From UHGV virus genome UHGV-0057547: 64,000 nt of DNA; one strand, 5' to 3'. Below are positions 1-64,000 of this stretch, in pieces. A program made the position numbers and the translations under genes. Numbering within the stretch: position 1 is the first letter of the stretch; each line of letters starts with the position of its first letter. This DNA is from a virus. The notes below the pieces were generated by a model. The model worked only from the letters and a program-made list of their open reading frames with translations. It ran no database searches and was not told the origin of the DNA.

Positions 1-133
1 TTCTATCATTTTCTATTTTATTAATTTTCATTGTTATAAGTTTATCTTTTTTCAAACTAATCTCTCCTTTAAAGTAAAACAAGGTATATACAAATATATA
101 ACATATCTGTATATACCTTTAATAAGACTTACT

Positions 134-2040
134 TTATATGAAAAATATACTATTATCTTTATCAGCACAAATTATTTTAGTAGTTTTATTTGATTTTCTA
201 AGTTCTTCTTCCATCTTATCTCTAAATTTATATTTACTATCATCGCTATGATGTATAACAATTAAATTAGTATTGATACCTTTCATCATTTTAATTATTT
301 CTTTTCCTTGTATATGAGAAGACCATGTATTATATCTTATGACTTTAGCTTTCTTTTTAAATGACATATTTTCAATTTTAACTTCTTTAGTATTGTCGTT
401 TAATAATAATCCTCCTACTGTTGTTGGAGCACAATAACCAATTATCATTATAGTATAATTACTATCCTCTATATTTGCTTTTAAATGATTTAATATTCTA
501 CCTATATTACACATGCCAGCAGATGATATTACAATTTTTTGTTGTTCTTTATTAAGTGCTAAATTCATAGATGTCTCAAAGTCTTTTACAAAATGAAGTT
601 TTTCCCATGATAATATTTGTTCAAATATGTCTTTATCTTCCTTGTTTAATATTTGTTTATAAACATCATTGATTTCCAAAGAAAGTTTACCATCTAAGAA
701 TATAGGAGTTTTAAAATTTGGGTCATTAGAAAAAGTATTATATAAGTAATATAATAAATCTTGAGTTCTAGCTTGAGCAAAAGCTGGTATTAAAATTGAA
801 TGACCTTGTTTTAATTCATTAATTATATCATCTTTCATTTTTTTTCTTTCTTTTTCAATATCTTTTGCATTAAATCCTCTTGATAAATCTGAATAAGTTG
901 CTTCTGTTATTACTAAATTGGCATTTGATATAGTTTTAGTTTTTTTACGGAATGGTTGTTGATTATTAAAACTACCTGTATCTCCACTATAATATATTTT
1001 TTTTGTAACTCCACTTGGCATTTTAAAGAATAATTCTATTGAAGTTGCTCCTACTATATGGTTATTTGGCAAAAGTCTAAAGCTAACATATTCATTTAAC
1101 TCATGTATAACATCTTCTTCATAAGTAGAAGTTTTTGATAACATTCTATATACATCGCTTTCAGTATAAAGAGGTTCTACCTTATATCCTTGATTACTCA
1201 TTTGTCTACAATTTCTTTGTAATATATAAGCACCATCTATCAATAAAGGTTCAGATAATTCTTTATTCTCATAACCCATAATAAATTTATCTACATTATC
1301 TACTATAGCTGGTAGATTTCCTATATGGTCTAGTGATTTCAAAGATGTGAATGAGATACAAAACAAGCTTTTATTTGACCACATTCACAAACTTTTTCAA
1401 CCACCCCCTTATTAACCACATATTCTTCTCTTAAAGCACCATTCATTTGAACCATACCACATTCAATAAGAACTTTTTCATAGTCTCCTTCTTTTGTTGG
1501 ATATGATAAAAGTATAGATGTTCCAACAACACCATTATGACTTTCTCCTACAAATTCAACTATTACTTTATTTTTATTTTTCTTACTTATAATATATGGA
1601 TTCTTTTTCTTCTTTTTCTTTTTCTTAATTACATTGAGATTTTCTTTTCTACAATCTAAAAAATCACCATTTATAAACTCTATTTTATTATCATTTCCTA
1701 ATATATAATTTTGTAAAGTTGTATTTTTGCCTAGCACATCTCCAATAATACAAGAATGTTTTTTGTTCCATCTTACATTTTTACATGTTTTTACATCGTC
1801 TAAATCTATCAACACTCTTTCTTCAAGCTCTTCTTGAAACAAGGCATCATACAATACAATTTCAGCATAATCTTTATGTATTATTATTTCATTATTGTCA
1901 AATTCTGTTATAGGACTATCTGATATACAGAAACCATATTTCCTATATTCGTCCCAATGTTTTTTGCAAAGTCCATTTTTATTTTTTTTGCTTAATAGTT
2001 TTCCACATTGGTTACAGTATTTTTTATTATCTTTGTTCAT
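134..2040 (-). CDS. beta-CASP metallo-beta-lactamase-fold nuclease (RNase J/CPSF/Artemis-like), carried on two overlapping ORFs (1339..2040 N-terminal, 134..1384 C-terminal) with an apparent frameshift
   Basis: N-terminal ORF ends ...SHSHL; the C-terminal ORF continues in another frame with ...SLDHIGNLP (HxHxDH split across the junction). Downstream LVITEATYS (beta-CASP motif A-like), YYSGDTG, LIPAFAQARTQDLL (beta-CASP P.FA.GR.QE). The ORFs overlap at 1339-1384 in different frames. Confidence 0.6.
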
Positions 2041-2619: not shown

Positions 2620-3018
2620 TTAATCTACTCCTAATTCTGCAATATTTGTATTAAAATTTTCATTTAAGTATTCACGCAAAATATGCCTATGGCAAAAATC
2701 AGTAGACTTTTCATAGCATAATAGCACAATTTCCGTATCTGTAATTCCTTCATAATCATATAAGTCTTCAAGTATTTGCTCTAAGTCTAACTCTTTTAAT
2801 TTATCAGTATACGCATTTATAAAATCTTCTTGTGACATTTTGTTGTTCTTTAGTTTAAAAACATTGTCACTAGATGGAGCTAATAATTTATATTCCATAT
2901 AATACTCTTCTCTATCTAAGAACCATTTAGGCAAACTGGTTGAAATTAATACAGGCATATATCTATTCTTTTCTTCTTTTGGCAACCTAGAAAATTTCGC
3001 ATAATAACTAGTCTTCAT
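2620..3018 (-). CDS. DUF488-family protein
   Basis: C-terminal signature IVLLCYEKSTDFCHRHILREYL, typical of DUF488 (LLC.E....CHR..L). Confidence 0.5.
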   Translation of the reverse strand: MKTSYYAKFSRLPKEEKNRYMPVLISTSLPKWFLDREEYYMEYKLLAPSSDNVFKLKNNKMSQEDFINAYTDKLKELDLEQILEDLYDYEGITDTEIVLLCYEKSTDFCHRHILREYLNENFNTNIAELGVD

Positions 3019-3031
3019 AAAATTCCTCCTT

Positions 3032-4564
3032 TTATTTATTTAATTTTCTATATTCATATTCTTCTTTATTTAATTCTTCTATTTCTTCTTCATTAAGTAA
3101 ATGATATTCATCACACCATATTTCAAACTCTCCATTTTGTACCCACTTTGTTTTAATTATTGTATTTCCGTCTTTATCTGTTGTTTCAACTTCTTTTTTT
3201 TCTTTTTTTGCCTTTTGGAACATATGATATACATTAATTACACTAAATGCTTTAAACGGTTGTGCTTCATAAAATCCTTCACCAACTTTTACCTCCATAG
3301 TTTTTCCAGTGCTTATATTAAAAATCCATGCTTTTTTATTCTTAAATTTAGTTACAACGTCAATAACAATACAAGTTGATGAATCATAATCTTCAAAATA
3401 ATAATTACATTCTCCAGTCATTTCAAGATTAATTTTAACTTTATCTATTGATGGCATTTCGCTATCTTCTATGTTCGACATTAATTCATTACATAATTCT
3501 AATGCTTTTTCTACTTTATATTGTTTATATTTATCTTCTTTACTCTTTTCAGTTGCATATTTTTCTATTATTTCTTTAGGGTATGGTAAATTAATTTTAT
3601 TAAATGATACTTCACCTTTTTTACTTTTTATTTTTTTACTTATTATATTTTCATATAACTTTATTATATCTAATAATTTTTGAGATTTACCAAATTCCTT
3701 GAAGAAATCTATTGATATCAGTATATTGAGTTGTCTTGAGTTTATAGATGTTTTATCATTTAAATCAATAAGTAAATCCATAAAACTATCATATTTATTA
3801 TCTTTTAACATATATAATTCTTGTGATACTTGTTCGTTCATATATTTTATACTAGCCATACCTTTATATATAGAGTTACTTTCTTTATCCATAAAATATT
3901 CAGCTTTAGAATATCTAAATTTAGGAGGTAATAATTTTATATCAAAATAGCTTAATTCTTTTATTAGTCTATTTGTTCTAGTTGAATCATCGGAATAAAT
4001 AGATAGGGCAACTGTATAATACTCAAGAGGATAATGTGATTTTAAAAATGCACCATATAGACTATCATAAGCATAAGAAAGTGAATGTGAAGCATTGAAT
4101 GAATATTTTGAAGCATCATTAACTACTTGCCATGTTTCTTCAAAACCATCTATTGAACCAACTTTATCTATCCAACCTTTTTTTAATTTTTCTTCTAGTT
4201 CTATTAATTCTTTTTCTTTAAATTTTTTCTTTGATATTTTTTTTATAATTCCATATGTTTCAGGTTCAGGAATACCTAACCATATTAAATATTTCATAAT
4301 AGATTCTTGATACATTAAATAATGATAACTATCTTCTAATAAATCATCTAATTCTTTTACGCCTGTTGTATATGGTTTCCTTTCTATAAAATTATCTAAT
4401 AAAGAAGCAAATCCAGGTCTAATAGATGCAACAAAAGCACTCATTTCAGCTACACTAGAAATTTTATATCTTGATGCTAAATTAGTTGCAAAATCTGAAT
4501 CAGATTGATTTATTGTGCAAGTTATTTTATCTTCATATATTTTAAATGTTTTTTCATCTAACAT
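3032..4564 (-). CDS. dnaE: DNA polymerase III alpha (DnaE-like), downstream exon. The true exon probably starts upstream of the annotated Met, near 4610
   Basis: SAFVASIRPGFASLLDNFIERK matches the DnaE ALYRPGPM...IRRK region. The frame stays open upstream of the Met back to about 4612. Confidence 0.75.
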   Translation of the reverse strand: MLDEKTFKIYEDKITCTINQSDSDFATNLASRYKISSVAEMSAFVASIRPGFASLLDNFIERKPYTTGVKELDDLLEDSYHYLMYQESIMKYLIWLGIPEPETYGIIKKISKKKFKEKELIELEEKLKKGWIDKVGSIDGFEETWQVVNDASKYSFNASHSLSYAYDSLYGAFLKSHYPLEYYTVALSIYSDDSTRTNRLIKELSYFDIKLLPPKFRYSKAEYFMDKESNSIYKGMASIKYMNEQVSQELYMLKDNKYDSFMDLLIDLNDKTSINSRQLNILISIDFFKEFGKSQKLLDIIKLYENIISKKIKSKKGEVSFNKINLPYPKEIIEKYATEKSKEDKYKQYKVEKALELCNELMSNIEDSEMPSIDKVKINLEMTGECNYYFEDYDSSTCIVIDVVTKFKNKKAWIFNISTGKTMEVKVGEGFYEAQPFKAFSVINVYHMFQKAKKEKKEVETTDKDGNTIIKTKWVQNGEFEIWCDEYHLLNEEEIEELNKEEYEYRKLNK

Positions 4565-4985
4565 TTTTTCTAATTCTTTAATAGTTGGTATTTTAATATT
4601 AGCTAATTCACAAGTTTTTCTTATTAAAGTCCAAACGGTAACTGCAAGATACGTTAATACCGTTCCTTTCGGAATACTTTAACACCCATTTAAGGGTCGG
4701 ACTAGACTATACCTTTATCTTCGACATTACTCGTTAAGATATGCCTATTATAGTCGTTGAAGGTTTCCCATCTTAAAGGGACTTCCCTGCTGATTATCCA
4801 TTCATTCACCCTTAGCACTCTCACAAGGCTTTTATTTCAGCTTAGGCAATCCTTATAATTTTTTCTGCTTTCGCAACCATCAAGTTTAATGTTACCATTT
4901 ACTTTGTGGTTTATAAGGCTTTAGGAACTCCCAGCAATTTAAGGCATCATAATCTACATAATTTCTTATATAGACGACTATTAAA
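4565..4985 (-). ncRNA. group I self-splicing intron interrupting dnaE (no internal ORF)
   Basis: About 420-nt non-coding, GC-enriched insert between two in-order DnaE halves. Minus-sense contains AAGGUAUAGUCUAGUCC (P7 3' strand / P9.0-like, cf. canonical AAGAUAUAGUCC) and CGACUAUAAUAGGC (candidate P7 5' strand GACUA). Confidence 0.6.
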
Positions 4986-6668
4986 TTAATCATTCTTTAA
5001 ATATTTATAAACATCACAATTATAACCATCTAAATTACAACATATTCCTTCTTTAGTTTTTATTAAACCAATTTCTTCTGAAACATTTTTATCATATAGT
5101 AACATTGAACAAGGTGATTCTGATATACTTTCCACTACTCCCTTAAATACTTTTGAATCTTTTATTATTTTTCCCCAATATTCATCGTTTTCATATTGCT
5201 CTAAATTTTTAGCTATTTCATCGTATTTACTAACATGCATATCATTTGCTTTACACCATAATCTAAAAGCAGATGAATCTTGTAAAGGTTTATATGATAA
5301 AATCCAAGCACAATTTTCTTCGCCTAATAAATCTTTAGTTGCTTGTATAAAAACTGAACGGTCTTCTGTATTTAAATCAACATCGGGTAATGAACGAGTA
5401 CCTAATATACGTTCTATACTCATAAATCTAGTTGGATACAATGGAACTGGTGCTGATAATCTATCTATTTCTGTTAAGCCTAATAATTTGTTTATAAGAA
5501 AACTTACAGCAGAACCTCTTCCTGTCTTAGTTAATAAGCCATTATATTTATTTATTGCTCTTTGACATATTTTATAATCTAATATAAAATAATCTTCCAT
5601 ATGTGTTTTCTCAATTATATTAAATTCATATCTTATAGCTTCTAAATATTCATTCCATCTCTCTTTAGGTATTGTATCTCTTATTTCCATCCATCTTTTA
5701 TTAATTATATCTTTTAATTCTTTATTTGGATTATTTGATATTGATGGCATTTTAATTTCTTTATCTAATATAATATTTTCACATTCATCAAAAATTAAAG
5801 TATTATTAATTGCATCTTTTATTTGCTCTTCATTTAATATATTTTGTTTATTATATCGTTCTATTATAGTTTCTACATCAGGATAATCTAATATAAAGTT
5901 TGTTTCTTCTTTATATATGATGCCTTTTGCTTTAAGAAATAATTCTCTATAAATATAATCTTGTGGATTAATATAATGTGAATCGTTACCATGAATAATA
6001 TTAATATTATATTTTTCACTTAAGCATAGAATTTTTTTATTAAGATTTTTTTGTATATCTTCATTATGGTTTTGAACTTCTAAATAAAAATTATTACCAA
6101 AATATTCTTTCATTTTTATAATCCAATCGTCTAAGCCTTCATCATTTCTTAAACGACCAGCAACACAAGCAGTTGTTATAATTGTATTATTTGGATTAAT
6201 ACTAAATAATAATTCATCATCTATTCTATTTTTATAATATACCCCATCTATATTGCTATAGGATAATATTCTATTTAAGTCTCTATATCCATCTTTATTT
6301 TTTGCTATTATAACTAAGTGATAATTAGAGTTATCTTTTTCTTTTCTATCTTTAACATAATATGCTTCTGCACCAACTACCATTTTAATACCTTTATATG
6401 ATTTATCGCATGTATCTTTATATTTACATTTTTCACAATTATGTTTTGTATATTCATTATTTTCTTGAGTAAGTTTTACACATACTTCACTACATAAAGT
6501 ATTTGCTTCATATACATTACCTTGATAACCATGTTCAGTAGTAAAATATATTGCATCTTTACCATCTAATTCAATTGCTCTAACTATATATTCTATTGGT
6601 TTAGTAACCACATCTAAACTTTTAATATTGCTATATATTTTATGTGAATGATAATTATTACATCTCAT
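4986..6668 (-). CDS. dnaE: DNA polymerase III alpha (DnaE-like), upstream exon: PHP domain plus N-terminal polymerase core
   Basis: N-terminal PHP motif YHSHKIYSNIKSLD...YFTTEHG. Size and order are consistent with DnaE when joined to 3032..4564 (about 1070 aa). Confidence 0.75.
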   Translation of the reverse strand: MRCNNYHSHKIYSNIKSLDVVTKPIEYIVRAIELDGKDAIYFTTEHGYQGNVYEANTLCSEVCVKLTQENNEYTKHNCEKCKYKDTCDKSYKGIKMVVGAEAYYVKDRKEKDNSNYHLVIIAKNKDGYRDLNRILSYSNIDGVYYKNRIDDELLFSINPNNTIITTACVAGRLRNDEGLDDWIIKMKEYFGNNFYLEVQNHNEDIQKNLNKKILCLSEKYNINIIHGNDSHYINPQDYIYRELFLKAKGIIYKEETNFILDYPDVETIIERYNKQNILNEEQIKDAINNTLIFDECENIILDKEIKMPSISNNPNKELKDIINKRWMEIRDTIPKERWNEYLEAIRYEFNIIEKTHMEDYFILDYKICQRAINKYNGLLTKTGRGSAVSFLINKLLGLTEIDRLSAPVPLYPTRFMSIERILGTRSLPDVDLNTEDRSVFIQATKDLLGEENCAWILSYKPLQDSSAFRLWCKANDMHVSKYDEIAKNLEQYENDEYWGKIIKDSKVFKGVVESISESPCSMLLYDKNVSEEIGLIKTKEGICCNLDGYNCDVYKYLKND

Positions 6669-30950: not shown

Positions 30951-31072
30951 GTTTCAGTGCTTGTTACAATTTCAGAACAAGCTTCCCTATTCATCGTATC
31001 CTCTTTCCTTTTTACAAAGTACTCAAGTTTGTATGATACTCCCAGGGCGTAAATTCGGAACTGAACTTTCCT
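30951..31072 (-). ncRNA. conserved structured RNA element (copy 2), directly downstream of promoter 31094..31122
   Basis: Minus-sense AUAGGAAAGUUCAGUUCC-GAAUUUACGCCCUGGGAGU-(UACAAACUUGAGUACUUUGUA hairpin)-GAGGAUACGAUGAAUAGGGAAGCUUGUUCUGAAAUUGUAACAAGCACUGAAAC. Confidence 0.6.
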
Positions 31073-37294: not shown

Positions 37295-37406
37295 GTTTCA
37301 ATGCTTACATTTAAGCTTCCCTATTCAACATATCCTCTTTCACCTAATGGCTACTTGAGTTTGTGTGATACTCCCAGGGCGTAAATTCGGGTTTGAACAT
37401 CCCTAC
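37295..37406 (-). ncRNA. conserved structured RNA element (copy 3), in the 5' leader of sigma factor gene 36682..37257
   Basis: GUAGGGAUGUUCAAACCC-GAAUUUACGCCCUGGGAGU...GGAUAUGUUGAAUAGGGAAGCUUAAAUGUAAGCAUUGAAAC. Near-identical to the copy at 41340..41451. Confidence 0.6.
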
Positions 37407-41339: not shown

Positions 41340-41451
41340 GTTTCAATGCTTACATTTAAGCTTCCCTATTCAACATATCCTCTTTCACCTAATGGCTACT
41401 TGAGTTTGTGTGATACTCCCAGGGCGTAAATTCGGGTTTGAACATCCCTAC
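41340..41451 (-). ncRNA. conserved structured RNA element (copy 4), in the 5' leader of gene 40879..41256
   Basis: Near-identical to copy 3. Promoter 41489..41517 immediately upstream. Confidence 0.6.
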
Positions 41452-41621: not shown

Positions 41622-41786
41622 TGTTTCAGTGCTTGTTACACTTGTATGGAAAGACTACTAAAAAGACAATGGAGTTTCAGTGCTTTGACAAGCTTCCCTG
41701 TTCATCGTGTTCTTTTTCACTTTATATAAGCTACTCAAGTTTTTATAACACTCCAAGGGCGTAAATTCGGAACTGAACTTTCCTAC
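41622..41786 (-). ncRNA. conserved structured RNA element (copies 5 and 6; internally duplicated 3' module), located 47 nt downstream of the tnpB stop codon with no promoter of its own. Candidate omegaRNA-like RNA
   Basis: Same AUAGGAAAGUUCAGUUCC-GAAUUUACGCCCUUGGAGUG-...-GAACACGAUGAACAGGGAAGCUUG core, then two GCACUGAAAC modules. Positionally equivalent to a TnpB omegaRNA (3' of tnpB, same strand). Confidence 0.5.
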
Positions 41787-41832: not shown

Positions 41833-43014
41833 TTAATATTGTGCTAAGTTTATAGAGGCATTTAAGTCTCTATCCATTGTGTGTCCACATTCAGGACAAG
41901 TAAAAGTTCTATCTTTCAATTTTAATCTTTCTTTTCCTATTCTTATATATCCACATTTACTACAAGTTTGTGAACTAGGATACCATCTGTCAGCTACTAC
42001 TAATTCAATTCCATAGTCATCACATTTATAAGTTAATTGATTTTTGATTTCATTAAATCCTTGTTGCCCTATTGATTTACTTAGATGTTTATTTTTCATC
42101 ATCCCTTTTACGTTTAAATTTTCAATAACTACTCTTTGTGGTTTCTTTTCTACTATTTGATGTGTCATTGTATGTCTATAATTATTTCTTATACCTGCAA
42201 TTCTATGTTGTAATTTAAGTATTTGTTTTTCTAATTTTATTATATTATTAGTCTTATGATATTTCTTTCCTTGTCTATTCATTTCATATTTTCTACTCAC
42301 TTGTCGTTGCATACGTTTTAATTTCTTTTCTAATTTTCTAACATGAGCAGTTTTATTAATGTTTTTATATACTGTGCCATCACTACATATTGCTAAATCT
42401 TTTATTCCTAAGTCTATTCCTAATGATGTTGGATTTAATTCAGGTTTTTCTTTTATTTCTCTTAAGCCTACACTAATGCTCCAATATATCCCATTGTATG
42501 TGACTCTAGGATTTACATATTTAATTTTAGGATACATTTCGCTTTCTTCATAAGGTATATAACCTTTTCTAGCTAATTTGATTGTTCCTATCTTAGATAT
42601 TTTTACTGTATCTTCAGTGATTTTTATACGTTGATAATGTGGTGCAAAAGCTGGAGTTGTTTTATTTCTACTTTTAAATTTAGGATAACCAACATCAGGT
42701 CTTTTGAAAAAATTTTTAAAAGCATTACAACTATCTGTATATGCAATTACTAGTGCCATTGAATCACAATCTTTAAGCCATTCATTACCTTCTTGATTTT
42801 TGTAAGCAGTGAAATATTTGCTTAATCCTTTTGATGGTATAAACTTTTCTTTTTTAGGAATACTTTCATCTTCATATCTACTTTTTTGAAATGCTAAACA
42901 CCAATTATATACATGTCTTGCACATCCTGCTTGAAAGAACATTTGTTTTTCTTGTTGTTTTGTTGGATATAACCTAACTTTGAAAGTTCTAATCTCCATT
43001 TTCAATTCCCCCAT
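41833..43014 (-). CDS. tnpB: TnpB (IS200/IS605 OrfB-type RuvC-like nuclease), catalytic residues intact
   Basis: FKVRLYPTKQQ N-terminus; RuvC-I GIDLGIKDLA; RuvC-II VVIENLNVKGMMKN; zinc finger CSKCGY...CPECGH; RuvC-III MDRDLNASINLA. Confidence 0.85.
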   Translation of the reverse strand: MGELKMEIRTFKVRLYPTKQQEKQMFFQAGCARHVYNWCLAFQKSRYEDESIPKKEKFIPSKGLSKYFTAYKNQEGNEWLKDCDSMALVIAYTDSCNAFKNFFKRPDVGYPKFKSRNKTTPAFAPHYQRIKITEDTVKISKIGTIKLARKGYIPYEESEMYPKIKYVNPRVTYNGIYWSISVGLREIKEKPELNPTSLGIDLGIKDLAICSDGTVYKNINKTAHVRKLEKKLKRMQRQVSRKYEMNRQGKKYHKTNNIIKLEKQILKLQHRIAGIRNNYRHTMTHQIVEKKPQRVVIENLNVKGMMKNKHLSKSIGQQGFNEIKNQLTYKCDDYGIELVVADRWYPSSQTCSKCGYIRIGKERLKLKDRTFTCPECGHTMDRDLNASINLAQY

Positions 43015-45384: not shown

Positions 45385-45498
45385 GTTTCAATACTTGTTA
45401 TCAAGCTTCCCTATTCAACGTATCCTCTTCCCCTCTTATGAGGTACTCAAGTTTATATGATACTCCAAGGGCGTAAATTCGGAACTGAACTTTCCTAT
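45385..45498 (-). ncRNA. conserved structured RNA element (copy 7), a stand-alone unit flanked by its own promoter (45518..45546) and terminator (45303..45331)
   Basis: AUAGGAAAGUUCAGUUCC-GAAUUUACGCCCUUGGAGUAUC...GGAUACGUUGAAUAGGGAAGCUUGAUAACAAGUAUUGAAAC. Terminator about 45 nt downstream; a second promoter then drives the next gene. Confidence 0.6.
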
Positions 45499-50842: not shown

Positions 50843-50952
50843 GTTTCAGTGCTCATTAGTAAGCTTCCCTGTTCAACGTGTTCTCTTTCGTTTTAAACTA
50901 CTCAAGTTTTTTACAACACTCCAAGGGCGTAAATTCGGAACTGAACTTTCCT
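50843..50952 (-). ncRNA. conserved structured RNA element (copy 8)
   Basis: Promoter TTGACATTATATATAAGCTAGTATATAAT immediately upstream. Element ends GCACUGAAAC about 30 nt before the next ATG. Confidence 0.55.
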
Positions 50953-55142: not shown

Positions 55143-55254
55143 GTTTCAATGCTTGTAACAAGCTTCCCTATTCAACGTGTTCTTTTTCACTTTATAAGCT
55201 ACTCAAGTTTTTGTAACACTCCCAGGGCGTAAATTCGGAACTGAACTTTCCTAC
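55143..55254 (-). ncRNA. conserved structured RNA element (copy 9)
   Basis: Promoter 55270-55320 upstream. GUAGGAAAGUUCAGUUCC-GAAUUUACGCCCUGGGAGUG...GAACACGUUGAAUAGGGAAGCUUGUUACAAGCAUUGAAACGC. Followed only by tiny ORFs (21 and 23 aa). Confidence 0.55.
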
Positions 55255-61240: not shown

Positions 61241-61572
61241 ATGTTTTTTGTATACATTAAACAATATACAAAATACAATATTCATTATAATGTATACAAT
61301 ATATCTATATTCTTTTTAGTATCAGTTCTAAAATCATTTTTCTATTTTATTTTTTTTCTACTGTTGCCGTATGACGTGATATAAGGCGTTTTAAAGACTT
61401 TTAAGATAGTTAGTGGATAATTAATCAATTAGATAATATATTCTCTTATATTGTCTTCTATTGCCTTATATTGATATATGAAAAAAAATAGAAAAACTTT
61501 TGAATAATTGTTGACATTAGATAATATTATGCTAACATTAAGATAATAAATAAATAAAGGAGATTGATAAGC

Positions 61573-61782
61573 ATGAAAAAATATAGTATAGAAATAAAGG
61601 GCAATATATGGACAAAGGAATTAATTGTTAATATATGCAAGGAAAAGAGACTATTTAAATATAATGTAACAGAATTATTAAGTGGATTAAAATACTGTAT
61701 ACAATTGAATGATTTAAGCTTTTGGAACTATCATTATTTTAAAAAACTTAAAAGAATAGAAGAAAAAAAATAGTAGACTTTT
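61573..61782 (+). CDS. small basic hypothetical protein (plus strand; first rightward gene)
   Basis: ATG at 61573 with AAAGGAG 8 nt upstream. Shares the leader TAAGATAATAAATAAATAAAGGRGATTGATAA with gene 63137..63298. Confidence 0.45.
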
Positions 61783-61800
61783 CTACTATTTTTTTATTGT
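61770..61800 (+). terminator. rho-independent terminator (plus strand)
   Basis: TAGTAGACTTTTCTACTA hairpin followed by TTTTTTTATT. Confidence 0.5.
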
Positions 61801-62900
61801 ATATATGAATAACTGTTCATATGTTTAATTGTATACAACATGTAATATATAGTATAATGTATCATGTATTAAATATCTTGTATGTAATATTATGCATAAT
61901 GTATTTTGTATGCAATATATAATATACTGTATACATTATTATGTATATTGTATTATATTAGTTTACATGTTAACTATTCTCATATTGATAATAAATAATA
62001 GTTGACAAATAAACAAGTGTTCTGCAATCGAACGTAGCATACTTTATGGTGTTTGTCAACAGTTAATTTTGTCCGAAAAGTTTAGTATAAGTAAACATTG
62101 CAAACGTGAAACCATTGAAAATACTATATTATCATTTTGATAAATTTACAAATACTAAGAAAAATTCATGACCTATTTAAATCGATTCTAAGAGGGCGAA
62201 CAAAATCCCTCTTTATAGTTAATTCTTTATATAAAGTCACCCTATACACTGCTTTAAAATCGACAGTAAAAGGTCGGTATGTATTTTTAAAAAGGTGACT
62301 ATAGTTTTTATTGTATGCATTTTATTGTATACAATTTATTATCATAATGATAATATATGAATAGGTATTCAAGTATTCATATATAGAATTGTATATTATA
62401 TGAATACTTATTCATATGTTTAATTATCAATATGTAAATAGTAAACATGTTAACTATTATCAATATGATAATATATGAGTGACTGTTCATATATTATGAT
62501 TAATGTATACAATATAATATATGGTGTATACGTATGAATAAATGTTCATATATTACTATGCATAATGCATAGTGTATAATGTTTAATGTATACAGTATTA
62601 TATATTATGTATGTTATACTATGTTTAATGTATACAATATATTATATAATGTATAGTGTATGATATACTAAGTACTATGTATGCTGTATAGTGTGCATTG
62701 CATACAATATGATATACTATGTATAGTGTACTATGTACTATGTATACAATATATAGTTAACATGTTAACTACTATCAATATGATAACATATGAGTGACTG
62801 TTCATACAATCAACTGTTATTAATATAACATATGAGTGACTGTTCATAGGTTCATATGATAGTATGATAGAACAACTGTTCCTATGATGTTCTATGTTAG
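61800..62900. repeat. repeat-dense noncoding region: many copies of TGTATACAAT (GTATAC palindrome), ATGTTAACAT/GTTAAC palindromes, and direct repeats GAGTGACTGTTCATA and (A)ATGTTAACTA(T/C)TATCAATATGATAA
   Basis: Read directly; no ORF of 60 aa or more; palindromic motifs recur more than 15 times. Confidence 0.55.
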
Positions 62901-63074
62901 AAGAACATATGATACAAAGAACGAACTGCTTAGGATTGATTGTAAGGCGTTGGCGTTGTGTCCTTCTTATGTTATATCGTTGAGAGTGTATCTCTTCTTA
63001 TATTGCCTTGTATTGTCTTATAATAGTATATGTAAAAAATAGTGTATAGAGAAAAAAATTTTCTTAAAAATTGT

Positions 63075-63102
63075 TGCTAAATAAGAGAGGAACTGCTATA
63101 CT
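63075..63102 (+). promoter_or_regulatory. candidate sigma-A promoter (TTGCTA-16-TATACT) for gene 63137..63298
   Basis: TTGCTA 63075-63080; TATACT 63097-63102; shared leader and RBS downstream. Confidence 0.35.
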
Positions 63103-63136
63103 TAAGATAATAAATAAATAAAGGGGATTGATAAAT

Positions 63137-63298
63137 ATGAAAAAATTATTATTAGTTTTAGGATTGGTTATTATTGCTGTATTTTTTAAAGACTGTATAT
63201 TAATAGGATTAATGGATTTTGTTGATTTTGTGGGAAACTTATTTAACTTGAATGTAATTGTTCCGATTGACTTTTTAAATACTTTATATTATCTATAA
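63137..63298 (+). CDS. small membrane protein (53 aa) MKKLLLVLGLVIIAVFFKDCILIGLMDFVDFVGNLFNLNVIVPIDFLNTLYYL
   Basis: Hand-translated; RBS AAAGGGG; same leader as gene 61573..61782. Confidence 0.4.
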   Translation: MKKLLLVLGLVIIAVFFKDCILIGLMDFVDFVGNLFNLNVIVPIDFLNTLYYL

Positions 63299-64000
63299 GC
63301 AGAGAATAAGTGGGACAAAATATGTCCTACTTATTTTTTATGGTGTATTGTATACAGTATTTTTTATGTTGTATATTGTATGGTGAATTGTTTATGGTGA
63401 ATTGTTTATATTGTATACATTATTATATATTATGTATGGTGAATTGATTATAATGTATTGATTGTTGTGTATTGTATGGTATAATATAATATGAAAGAGT
63501 TTTGTACATTTTTGTCAAATATTGTAATATATAAAGCCTTGTTACACGTGGAACACGGTGAAAAAACTAAGGGGATTTTGTGGGGAATTGTAGGGAATTT
63601 TAAGGAACTTATAAGGGGGGACTCTGAAAATTTTGTGGGACATATAATAGGGGGGTGGGTCGAAAAAAGTCCCACTATAAATTCTTTGTATACAGTGTTT
63701 TAAAAAAGAGTTCTTAGAGAACTATTTACCTTTTCGACATAAAGGGGGTAGTTTTCGTAACTTTTCGTGTTTTTTCGACAATATATGAGTATAGTCCCTT
63801 TATCTACACACTATCAAATTTTATCAAAGTATAACCAAATACTATCAAATTTCATAATATTTTACTATCAAAACACCATCAAAACATAATCAATATTTCT
63901 ACATCATATACCACGTAAAATTAATATCATAAAAATACACTACGTTGTATACACTATATTGTATACACTACCCACATAACACAGTATACTTTACATTGTA

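Follow-up and report, generated by a model that had tools for sequence, protein, structure and literature searches.

The virus genome UHGV-0057547, of which a 64,000-nucleotide (nt) stretch was analysed (the window), carries on its minus strand a dnaE gene for the alpha subunit of DNA polymerase III (Pol III alpha), and a group I intron of 337 nt splits this gene. The initial annotation had described two open reading frames (ORFs) here, 4986-6668 (560 aa) and 3032-4564 (510 aa), and both are present in head-to-tail arrangement. It had also taken the whole spacer between them, 4565-4985 (421 nt), as a non-coding intron of about 420 nt. The intron is real, but its limits were misplaced and are corrected here to 4652-4988. 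The parts of the interrupted gene are the following.

4989-6668, minus strand: dnaE exon 1, aa 1-560, with the PHP domain and the palm/'NTPase' domain; ends AAU GAU, the last base being U4989.
4652-4988, minus strand: group I intron of 337 nt with no ORF; begins UAAUUUAAUAGUCGUC and finishes GGUAUUAACG.
4986-4988, minus strand: in-frame UAA formed by intron bases 1-3, read directly from the sequence.
4652, minus strand: terminal G of the intron (omega-G) and 3' splice site, the only G that gives an in-frame, gapless D560|Y561.
3032-4651, minus strand: dnaE exon 2, aa 561-1099 and the stop codon, with the finger, helix-hairpin-helix (HhH) and C-terminal regions; starts UAU CUU GCA.

The 5' limit at 4985 was 3 nt short, as the UAA that ends the first ORF (4986-4988) makes up the first bases of the intron. 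Because the intron opens with UAA in the frame of exon 1, ribosomes on unspliced RNA would halt at the splice site. On the other side, the 87 nt of 4565-4651 are coding sequence of exon 2 rather than intron. The exon 2 frame extends past ATG4564 and stays open upstream as far as 4678, and these 87 nt code for YLAVTVWTLIRKTCELANIKIPTIKELEK, a stretch conserved among intron-less homologues. Moving the junction by 1 or 2 bases leaves the mRNA unchanged, but the intron then no longer ends in G, so 4988-4652 is the sole assignment that agrees with both group I rules: exon 1 ends in U (U4989, the partner of G4978 in P1) and G is the last base of the intron (G4652), as the initial annotation had proposed to check.

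Conceptual splicing at GAU|UAU (D560-Y561) yields a DnaE of 1099 aa, longer than the estimate of about 1070 aa made from the two ORFs. The predicted spliced mRNA junction reads AAGAAUGAU|UAUCUUGCA and the junction peptide spans YLKNDYLAVTVW; the corresponding intron-less site of the phiCD211 type reads AAAAATGAT|TATTTA. The spliced protein is colinear, with no gap, with the uninterrupted DnaE of the Clostridium phages phiCD211 (CEK40467) and c-st (CST061), and the junction YKYLKND|YLAVTVWTLIRK aligns gaplessly to YKYLKNDYLTVKVWSLIRK of phiCD211 and YKYLKNDYLTVSVWSIISK of c-st. Four Pfam domains follow in order, PHP (PF02811, aa 6-201), DNA_pol3_alpha (PF07733, 325-512), finger (PF17657, 568-719) and HHH_6 (PF14579, 798-885), so the PHP domain is located as first described, and the IRPG motif lies at aa 637-640. 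Solved-structure DnaE proteins are matched at E 1e-18. With M. tuberculosis DnaE1 (PDB 5LEW) as the reference, SLPDVDLN aligns with SMPDIDID and YLKND|YLAV with LLKMD|FLGL. The intron therefore lies directly 3' of the codon for D560, the residue aligned to the Asp of LLKMD|FLGL. D560 corresponds to the third catalytic Asp, D555 of E. coli Pol III alpha (active site D401, D403 and D555). Homing endonucleases typically target highly conserved sites of this kind. In annotation, the two DnaE fragments should be merged into a single gene of 1099 aa, join(complement 4989..6668, 3032..4651). Within the PHP domain (approximately 6393-6488, minus strand; DnaE aa ~61-92) there is also a Cys-rich insertion of about 30 aa, EVCVKLTQENNEYTKHNCEKCKYKDTCDKSYKG, that is absent from the phiCD211 and c-st DnaE proteins.

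An Rfam scan of the 1-kb slice 4300-5300 identified a match to Intron_gpI (RF00028) at 4684-4998 on the minus strand, covering model positions 1-253 with 61.9 bits (E 4.3e-15) against a gathering threshold of 50 bits. The spacer had been noted as GC-richer than its flanks, and this is borne out over exact intervals, with 35.6% GC in the intron, 23.8% in the exons and 24.4% in the whole window; in 200-nt windows the value is about 37% between the ORFs vs 18-30% in the flanks. The other GC-rich islands of the window are RAGATH-18 copies or coding sequence. The 337 nt are not divisible by 3 and the longest internal ORFs are 33-40 aa; the ORF list contains no homing-endonuclease ORF within the intron, none being longer than 40 aa. 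A second intron was not found in the window, as Rfam slices 1-2400 and 61500-64000 gave nothing credible and blastn of the intron against the window returned only the self-match.

The RNA is predicted to fold into the P1-P9.1 architecture of a group I ribozyme. Unconstrained folding returns P2, the P5 extension, P7 enclosing P8, P9 and P9.1, with a minimum free energy (MFE) of -81.3 kcal/mol (z = -3.1 against dinucleotide shuffles). The covariance model (CM) alignment places P1 at the end of the first ORF and shows a near-exact Rfam consensus in J6/7-P7 (UCAACGACUAUA) and J8/7-P7' (AAGGUAUAGUC). The P7-side motif AAGGUAUAGUCUAGUCC at 4715-4699 and its upstream partner GACUAUA at 4755-4749, both picked out in the initial annotation, are confirmed, the latter pairing with 4711-4705 as P7, the helix in which group I introns bind guanosine. 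The helices are listed below, with changes seen in relatives of the intron; L009 and L068 are two metagenomic loci with an intron at the same site.

4974-4993, minus strand: P1, exon AUGAU (4993-4989) and intron UA (4988-4987) with the guide UAGUCGU (4980-4974).
4954-4973, minus strand: P2, 8 bp with a GAAA tetraloop; compensatory changes U-A to C-G and A-U to G-C in L068.
4943-4947 (AUGCC) with 4741-4745 (GGCAU), minus strand: P3, three of five pairs changed on both sides, 91% of cells paired.
4788-4936, minus strand: P4-P5 domain with a long P5 extension, including an A-rich stretch and an extra GNRA hairpin at 4818-4827.
4931-4936 with 4788-4793, minus strand: P4, 100% paired.
4924-4926 with 4797-4799, minus strand: P5, 100% paired.
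4911-4918 with 4851-4858, minus strand: P5a, all 8 of 8 pairs covary.
4876-4910, minus strand: P5b, a long hairpin with a GUAA loop.
4866-4875, minus strand: P5c, UGC-GAAA-GCA.
4762-4786, minus strand: P6/P6a, GG/CC and the short hairpin GUCCCUUUAAGAUGGGA; the position of a LAGLIDADG cassette of about 845 nt in relatives.
4749-4755 (GACUAUA) with 4705-4711 (UAUAGUC), minus strand: P7, nearly invariant in the family, 94% of cells paired.
4717-4740, minus strand: P8/P8a hairpin, six of eight pairs changed on both sides.
4684-4697, minus strand: P9, ACCC/GGGU; ACUU/AAGU in L009 and ACUC/GAGU in L068.
4663-4674, minus strand: P9.1, UUCC-GAAA-GGAA; UUGG/CCAA, UUAC/GUAA or UGAC/GUCA in other members.

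In the pair list of the CM alignment, U4989-G4978 is a wobble pair at the 5' splice site, and the guide UAGUCGU is unchanged in L068, which has the same insertion site. A candidate P10 pairs A4979, U4980 and A4981 with exon 2 bases U4651, A4650 and U4649 (AUA/UAU).

The full P1-P9.1 structure, with P3 and P7 written as pseudoknot brackets, was scored on an alignment of seven members: the window intron, three same-site relatives from which the endonuclease cassette was removed, and the introns of Enterococcus phage phiEF17H, Staphylococcus phage 80B and Lactococcus phage AM1. Paired cells amount to 92.9%, vs 31-43% when the 3' partners are slid by 1-3 columns, and 44 of 84 pairs are changed on both sides, vs 3-10 in the slid controls, in a sample that is small (n=7, three of them very near the window) and scored with a structure partly derived from the window itself. 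None of 500 shuffles attains the observed pairing values. Most pairs of P3, P8 and P9.1 covary while P7 and P4 are nearly invariant, as is expected of a catalytic core; the alignment of P1 and P2 to the distant family members is poor. Covariation thus supports the P1-P9 fold, including the P7 pairing that the initial annotation had put forward.

These features indicate that the 337-nt element is very probably a splicing-competent group I intron, for which known group I chemistry suggests the standard transesterification in two steps, initiated by guanosine. In this phage or plasmid-prophage, dnaE would be transcribed as a single pre-mRNA containing the ribozyme, and the RNA would adopt the P1-P9.1 architecture. 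An external guanosine bound at P7 would attack the phosphodiester after U4989, which would be held in P1 as a U-G wobble by UAGUCGU. The freed 3' OH of exon 1 would then attack after G4652, with the 3-bp P10 positioning exon 2, and ligation of GAU|UAU would restore codons D560-Y561 of the 1099-aa Pol III alpha. Unspliced RNA would be translated only as far as the UAA that opens the intron.

Several points weigh against the assignment of a splicing-competent intron. Rfam scans of the whole window, in gathering and E-value mode, failed to report the intron, as the filters rejected it; the output in both modes consisted of RAGATH-18 RNAs only, eight at gathering thresholds. These misses are read as filter artefacts in a long AT-rich query, since the 1-kb slice scores above threshold. 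The candidate P10 has just 3 bp. The gap from P7 to P3' is 3 nt (AUA) and hence leaves no P7.1/P7.2, which between P7 and P3' are the mark of IA2 introns; unlike the IA2 introns of T4, SPO1 and Twort, the window intron has a long P5 extension instead, and a structural subgroup could not be assigned. Splicing, like mobility, is predicted from the observed fold, boundaries, colinearity and series of alleles, and the ribozyme could hold an inactivating change that is invisible to the covariance model. The Rfam result also has a practical side, as scans of whole AT-rich windows can miss genuine introns that pass the threshold on short slices, and other structured RNAs in this 64-kb window could be overlooked likewise.

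Three other explanations of the interruption were weighed. The gene could be a split dnaE, in which the N-terminal PHP/palm and C-terminal finger/HhH polypeptides are made separately and assemble without splicing, the spacer being intergenic. The gene caller does report two separate ORFs, and in GenBank the DnaE of Lactococcus phage AM1 is recorded piecewise. However, the spacer is a full group I ribozyme that exceeds the Rfam threshold and is supported by covariation, and the 29 codons before ATG4564 are in frame and conserved in intron-less DnaE. ATG4564 itself is an internal Met preceded by AAAGAAUUAGAAAAA with no Shine-Dalgarno sequence, whereas, of six other start codons examined in the vicinity, five have GGAGG-like sites ahead of them. 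The break also falls within a contiguous motif, one residue past the residue aligned to the catalytic Asp, and a split gene is considered highly improbable. It is still less plausible that the interruption is an intein or other protein-level element. Relatives of the window DnaE do carry inteins at other sites, at G385|S386 (L014, L067) and near N746 (L027), but intein motifs were not found in the 337 nt and the ORFs inside are 40 aa or shorter. The in-frame UAA at the start and the length, which is not a multiple of three, mean that the interruption cannot be an intein, and the chance of any such element is negligible.

Decay of the intron, with loss of the endonuclease followed by loss of splicing and dnaE left as a pseudogene in the window element, is very unlikely. 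The endonuclease is missing here and present in every near-identical relative recovered, and an apparently disrupted metallo-beta-lactamase-fold gene lies nearby. Against this, both exons are intact and open, with exon nucleotides 95-100% identical to those of relatives and the L009 DnaE protein 96-99% identical. The core helices are all intact, and J6/7, P7 and J8/7 agree with the Rfam consensus. The P9 differences from relatives are compensatory (ACCC/GGGU vs ACUU/AAGU), and the P6a hairpin is well formed and is found in a sister intron too.

The intron of the window has counterparts at the same site in seven relatives, all from IMG/VR and metagenome contigs. L009 (IMGVR_UViG_3300000360_000171), L014 and L097-L100 exhibit 95-100% nucleotide identity over ribozyme and exons, and L068 about 80%. 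In all seven, approximately 845 nt replace the 17-nt P6a hairpin of the window (4766-4782). This cassette is composed of a long closing stem (AAUAUGUUUAUUA...UAAUAAACAUAUU in L009) around an ORF; the stem of L068 is different yet complementary. The ORF encodes about 265 aa with two LAGLIDADG motifs (LLLADGHI and MFDGDGSI) and matches Pfam LAGLIDADG_3 (E 4e-7). The early remark that the intron has no homing-endonuclease ORF thus holds for the window copy and is peculiar to this allele, as the same-site relatives all carry LAGLIDADG in P6. L009-type alleles share with the window both the insertion after D560 and the guide, and differ in having the cassette in place of the 17-nt P6a. A tblastn high-scoring segment pair (HSP) reaching residue 581 had suggested an exon duplication in L009, which nucleotide alignment showed to be a spurious HSP extension.

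A sister intron in L031/L060 (positions 1-~1100) is 82% identical in the core and has a near-identical P6a hairpin, GUCCCUUUAAAAUGGGA vs GUCCCUUUAAGAUGGGA in the window. It lies in a different gene, some 2.8 kb upstream of dnaE, and its LAGLIDADG ORF follows P7' within the P9 region; the locus is truncated at the 5' end. The Alicyclobacillus phage copy has GUCUCGAAUAGAGA at the P6a position. Since the L031/L060 and Alicyclobacillus phage copies have it, the P6a hairpin is not a deletion scar, and the endonuclease-free P6a is therefore read as the ancestral-type state of the family. Either the window allele predates the invasion of P6 by the cassette, or it regained its core by recombination with an endonuclease-free copy. 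A further endonuclease-free copy at the D560 site was not found with a gapped pattern across P6, which had 0 matches in IMG/VR; the metagenome locus L101, which is 100% identical to window positions 3000-4760 and 97.8% identical elsewhere, ends before P6. As it has no endonuclease gene, the window copy cannot home by itself, and it would spread only via recombination or by homing promoted in trans.

Other members of this DnaE family contain further splicing elements. Inteins at G385|S386 in L014 (1708-3000) and L067 (4051-5358) are in frame, 431-436 aa in length, with TGRG|C...VHN|SAVSF ends and LAGLIDADG-like motifs. In L027 (~5180-5910), an in-frame intein with an HNH motif follows SFN (~N746). 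Between the first two catalytic Asp codons, at D429|V430 (SLPD|VDLN), there is an out-of-frame interruption with a GIY-YIG ORF in five loci.

L054, 4195-5536: D429|V430 interruption with a GIY-YIG endonuclease ORF.
L056-L059, 4183-5164: D429|V430 interruption with a GIY-YIG endonuclease ORF.

The Rfam Intron_gpI match in L056 is below threshold (34.3 bits, E 9e-7), and the L054 element shows homology to the window intron in its 3' part. The dnaE genes of L079 and L080 have further interruptions with HNH or LAGLIDADG ORFs that are putative introns; an Rfam scan of the L080 interruption gave no match. The dnaE insertion sites that can be placed fall at conserved or catalytic motifs. L014 bears both the G385 intein and the endonuclease-bearing intron at D560, while the window bears the bare intron alone.

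A tentative reading of these alleles, held with somewhat less than even confidence, is that the window retains an ancestral-type, endonuclease-free core, that LAGLIDADG genes invaded the lineage independently at P6 (dnaE) and at P9 (L031/L060), and that the DnaE family of this phage clade bears further splicing elements, including a group I intron after D429. If true, this would provide a natural series for the endonuclease gain and loss cycle and for competition between introns and inteins in one gene. The near-identical pair of alleles with and without the LAGLIDADG gene is material with which the gain and loss cycle can be tested.

Group I introns are known in phage genes such as the DNA polymerase of Bacillus phages SPO1 and SP82, td, nrdB and nrdD of T4, and genes of the Staphylococcus phages Twort and K. 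Phage DNA polymerase, ribonucleotide reductase, thymidylate synthase, lysin and structural genes are the classic hosts. The window intron resembles the SPO1/T4/Twort-type introns in that its ribozyme lies in an essential replication gene of a Firmicute phage, at a conserved active-site motif, with a stop codon just inside. Unlike the SPO1 type, the host gene is of the DnaE type (family C) rather than the PolA type, and there is no endonuclease ORF. The phage intron work of Landthaler and Shub and of Goodrich-Blair and Shub is cited in PMC3888941 and PMC6316719. In the searchable literature, no published account was found of a phage dnaE or Pol III alpha gene that carries a group I intron. The window intron adds family C (DnaE-type) polymerases to the range of phage genes in which group I introns reside. 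As a phage selfish element it is ordinary, and what is less usual is its host gene; the understanding of group I introns is unchanged by it. It is also comparable to the DnaE inteins, including the cyanobacterial split intein (Wu et al. 1998, as cited in PMC2814812), in being a selfish splicing element at a conserved DnaE motif, but the inteins are spliced at the protein level from an in-frame ORF, whereas the window element is an RNA intron.

BLASTN analysis of the intron showed related sequences in 154 phage records, mostly in unannotated gaps of split genes. The relatives are found in Staphylococcus (Twort-like and K-like), Enterococcus, Lactococcus, Brochothrix, Alicyclobacillus, Bacillus and Fusobacterium phages, for example in the ribonucleotide reductase of Enterococcus phage phiEF17H and in dnaE of Lactococcus phage AM1. 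The dnaE intron of AM1 (KY554768, 949-type) has a homologous ribozyme, 74.5% identical over 200 nt. Its site differs from that of the window intron: it immediately precedes the (Y)SFNxSH motif around window residue 745 and comes a few codons before the insertion point of the L027 intein. In the AM1 record (L083, KY554768), the intron homologue occupies 2483-2857, in the gap before AM1_140, and GenBank lists the DnaE coding sequences (CDSs) AM1_137 and AM1_140 with a 'hypothetical' CDS between them. The AM1 element is probably an unannotated dnaE intron of the 949-type lactococcal phages. No published account of it was found, and the phiL47 paper (PMC3888941) mentions introns only between ribonucleotide reductase ORFs. 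The split DnaE annotations of AM1 indicate that such introns already sit unrecognised in GenBank, and deposited phage genomes such as those of the 949-type Lactococcus phages appear to need the same joined-gene correction.

When the window was compared by megablast with GenBank phages and PLSDB plasmids, no close relative was found. Clostridioides/Clostridium phages of the phiCD211/c-st type matched best, with approximately 71-76% identity in dnaE only, and related uninterrupted dnaE genes are present in Clostridioides difficile, Terrisporobacter and contigs of Clostridia metagenome-assembled genomes (MAGs). The window is therefore assigned to an uncultured element, a phage or plasmid-prophage, whose hosts are low-GC and Clostridia-like.

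The metallo-beta-lactamase-fold gene mentioned above (~132-2040, minus strand) is broken in its HxHxDH motif at ~1325-1345, where the sequence reads CAT CTT [TGAAATCACTA] GAC CAT. Skipping 11 nt restores HSHL|DHIGNLP. Leu is encoded both by CUU, the codon that precedes the gap, and by CUA, the three bases with which the gap ends. The identical 11 nt are present in five independent metagenome relatives (L014, L097, L099, L100 and L101). An Rfam slice scan found nothing at the break, which could be a site of translational hopping or bypass, or could mark a conserved pseudogene. The ORF at 1339-2040 (minus strand) opens with an HNH_3-like, endonuclease-type segment, IEFINGDFLDCRKENL, that was assigned by eye and has no Pfam match at E 0.01. 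A poly-A tract of eight Lys codons links this segment to the beginning of the metallo-beta-lactamase-fold protein, and the segment may represent a free-standing homing endonuclease that is fused to the next gene downstream or slips into it.

The RAGATH-18 RNAs (RF03064, 57-69 bits) number eight in 64 kb.

17556-17621, minus strand: RAGATH-18 RNA.
30983-31047, minus strand: RAGATH-18 RNA.
37317-37379, minus strand: RAGATH-18 RNA.
41362-41424, minus strand: RAGATH-18 RNA.
41694-41759, minus strand: RAGATH-18 RNA.
45407-45471, minus strand: RAGATH-18 RNA.
50865-50927, minus strand: RAGATH-18 RNA.
55164-55227, minus strand: RAGATH-18 RNA.

IS607-type TnpB nucleases are reported to use RNAs derived from RAGATH-18 as guides (PMC11061315). 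Of the eight copies, just one, at 41694-41759, sits immediately downstream of a TnpB-like ORF (41833-43014, 393 aa, C-terminus CPECGHTMDRDLNASINLAQY). The other seven copies are stand-alone and intergenic, situated between unrelated phage genes.

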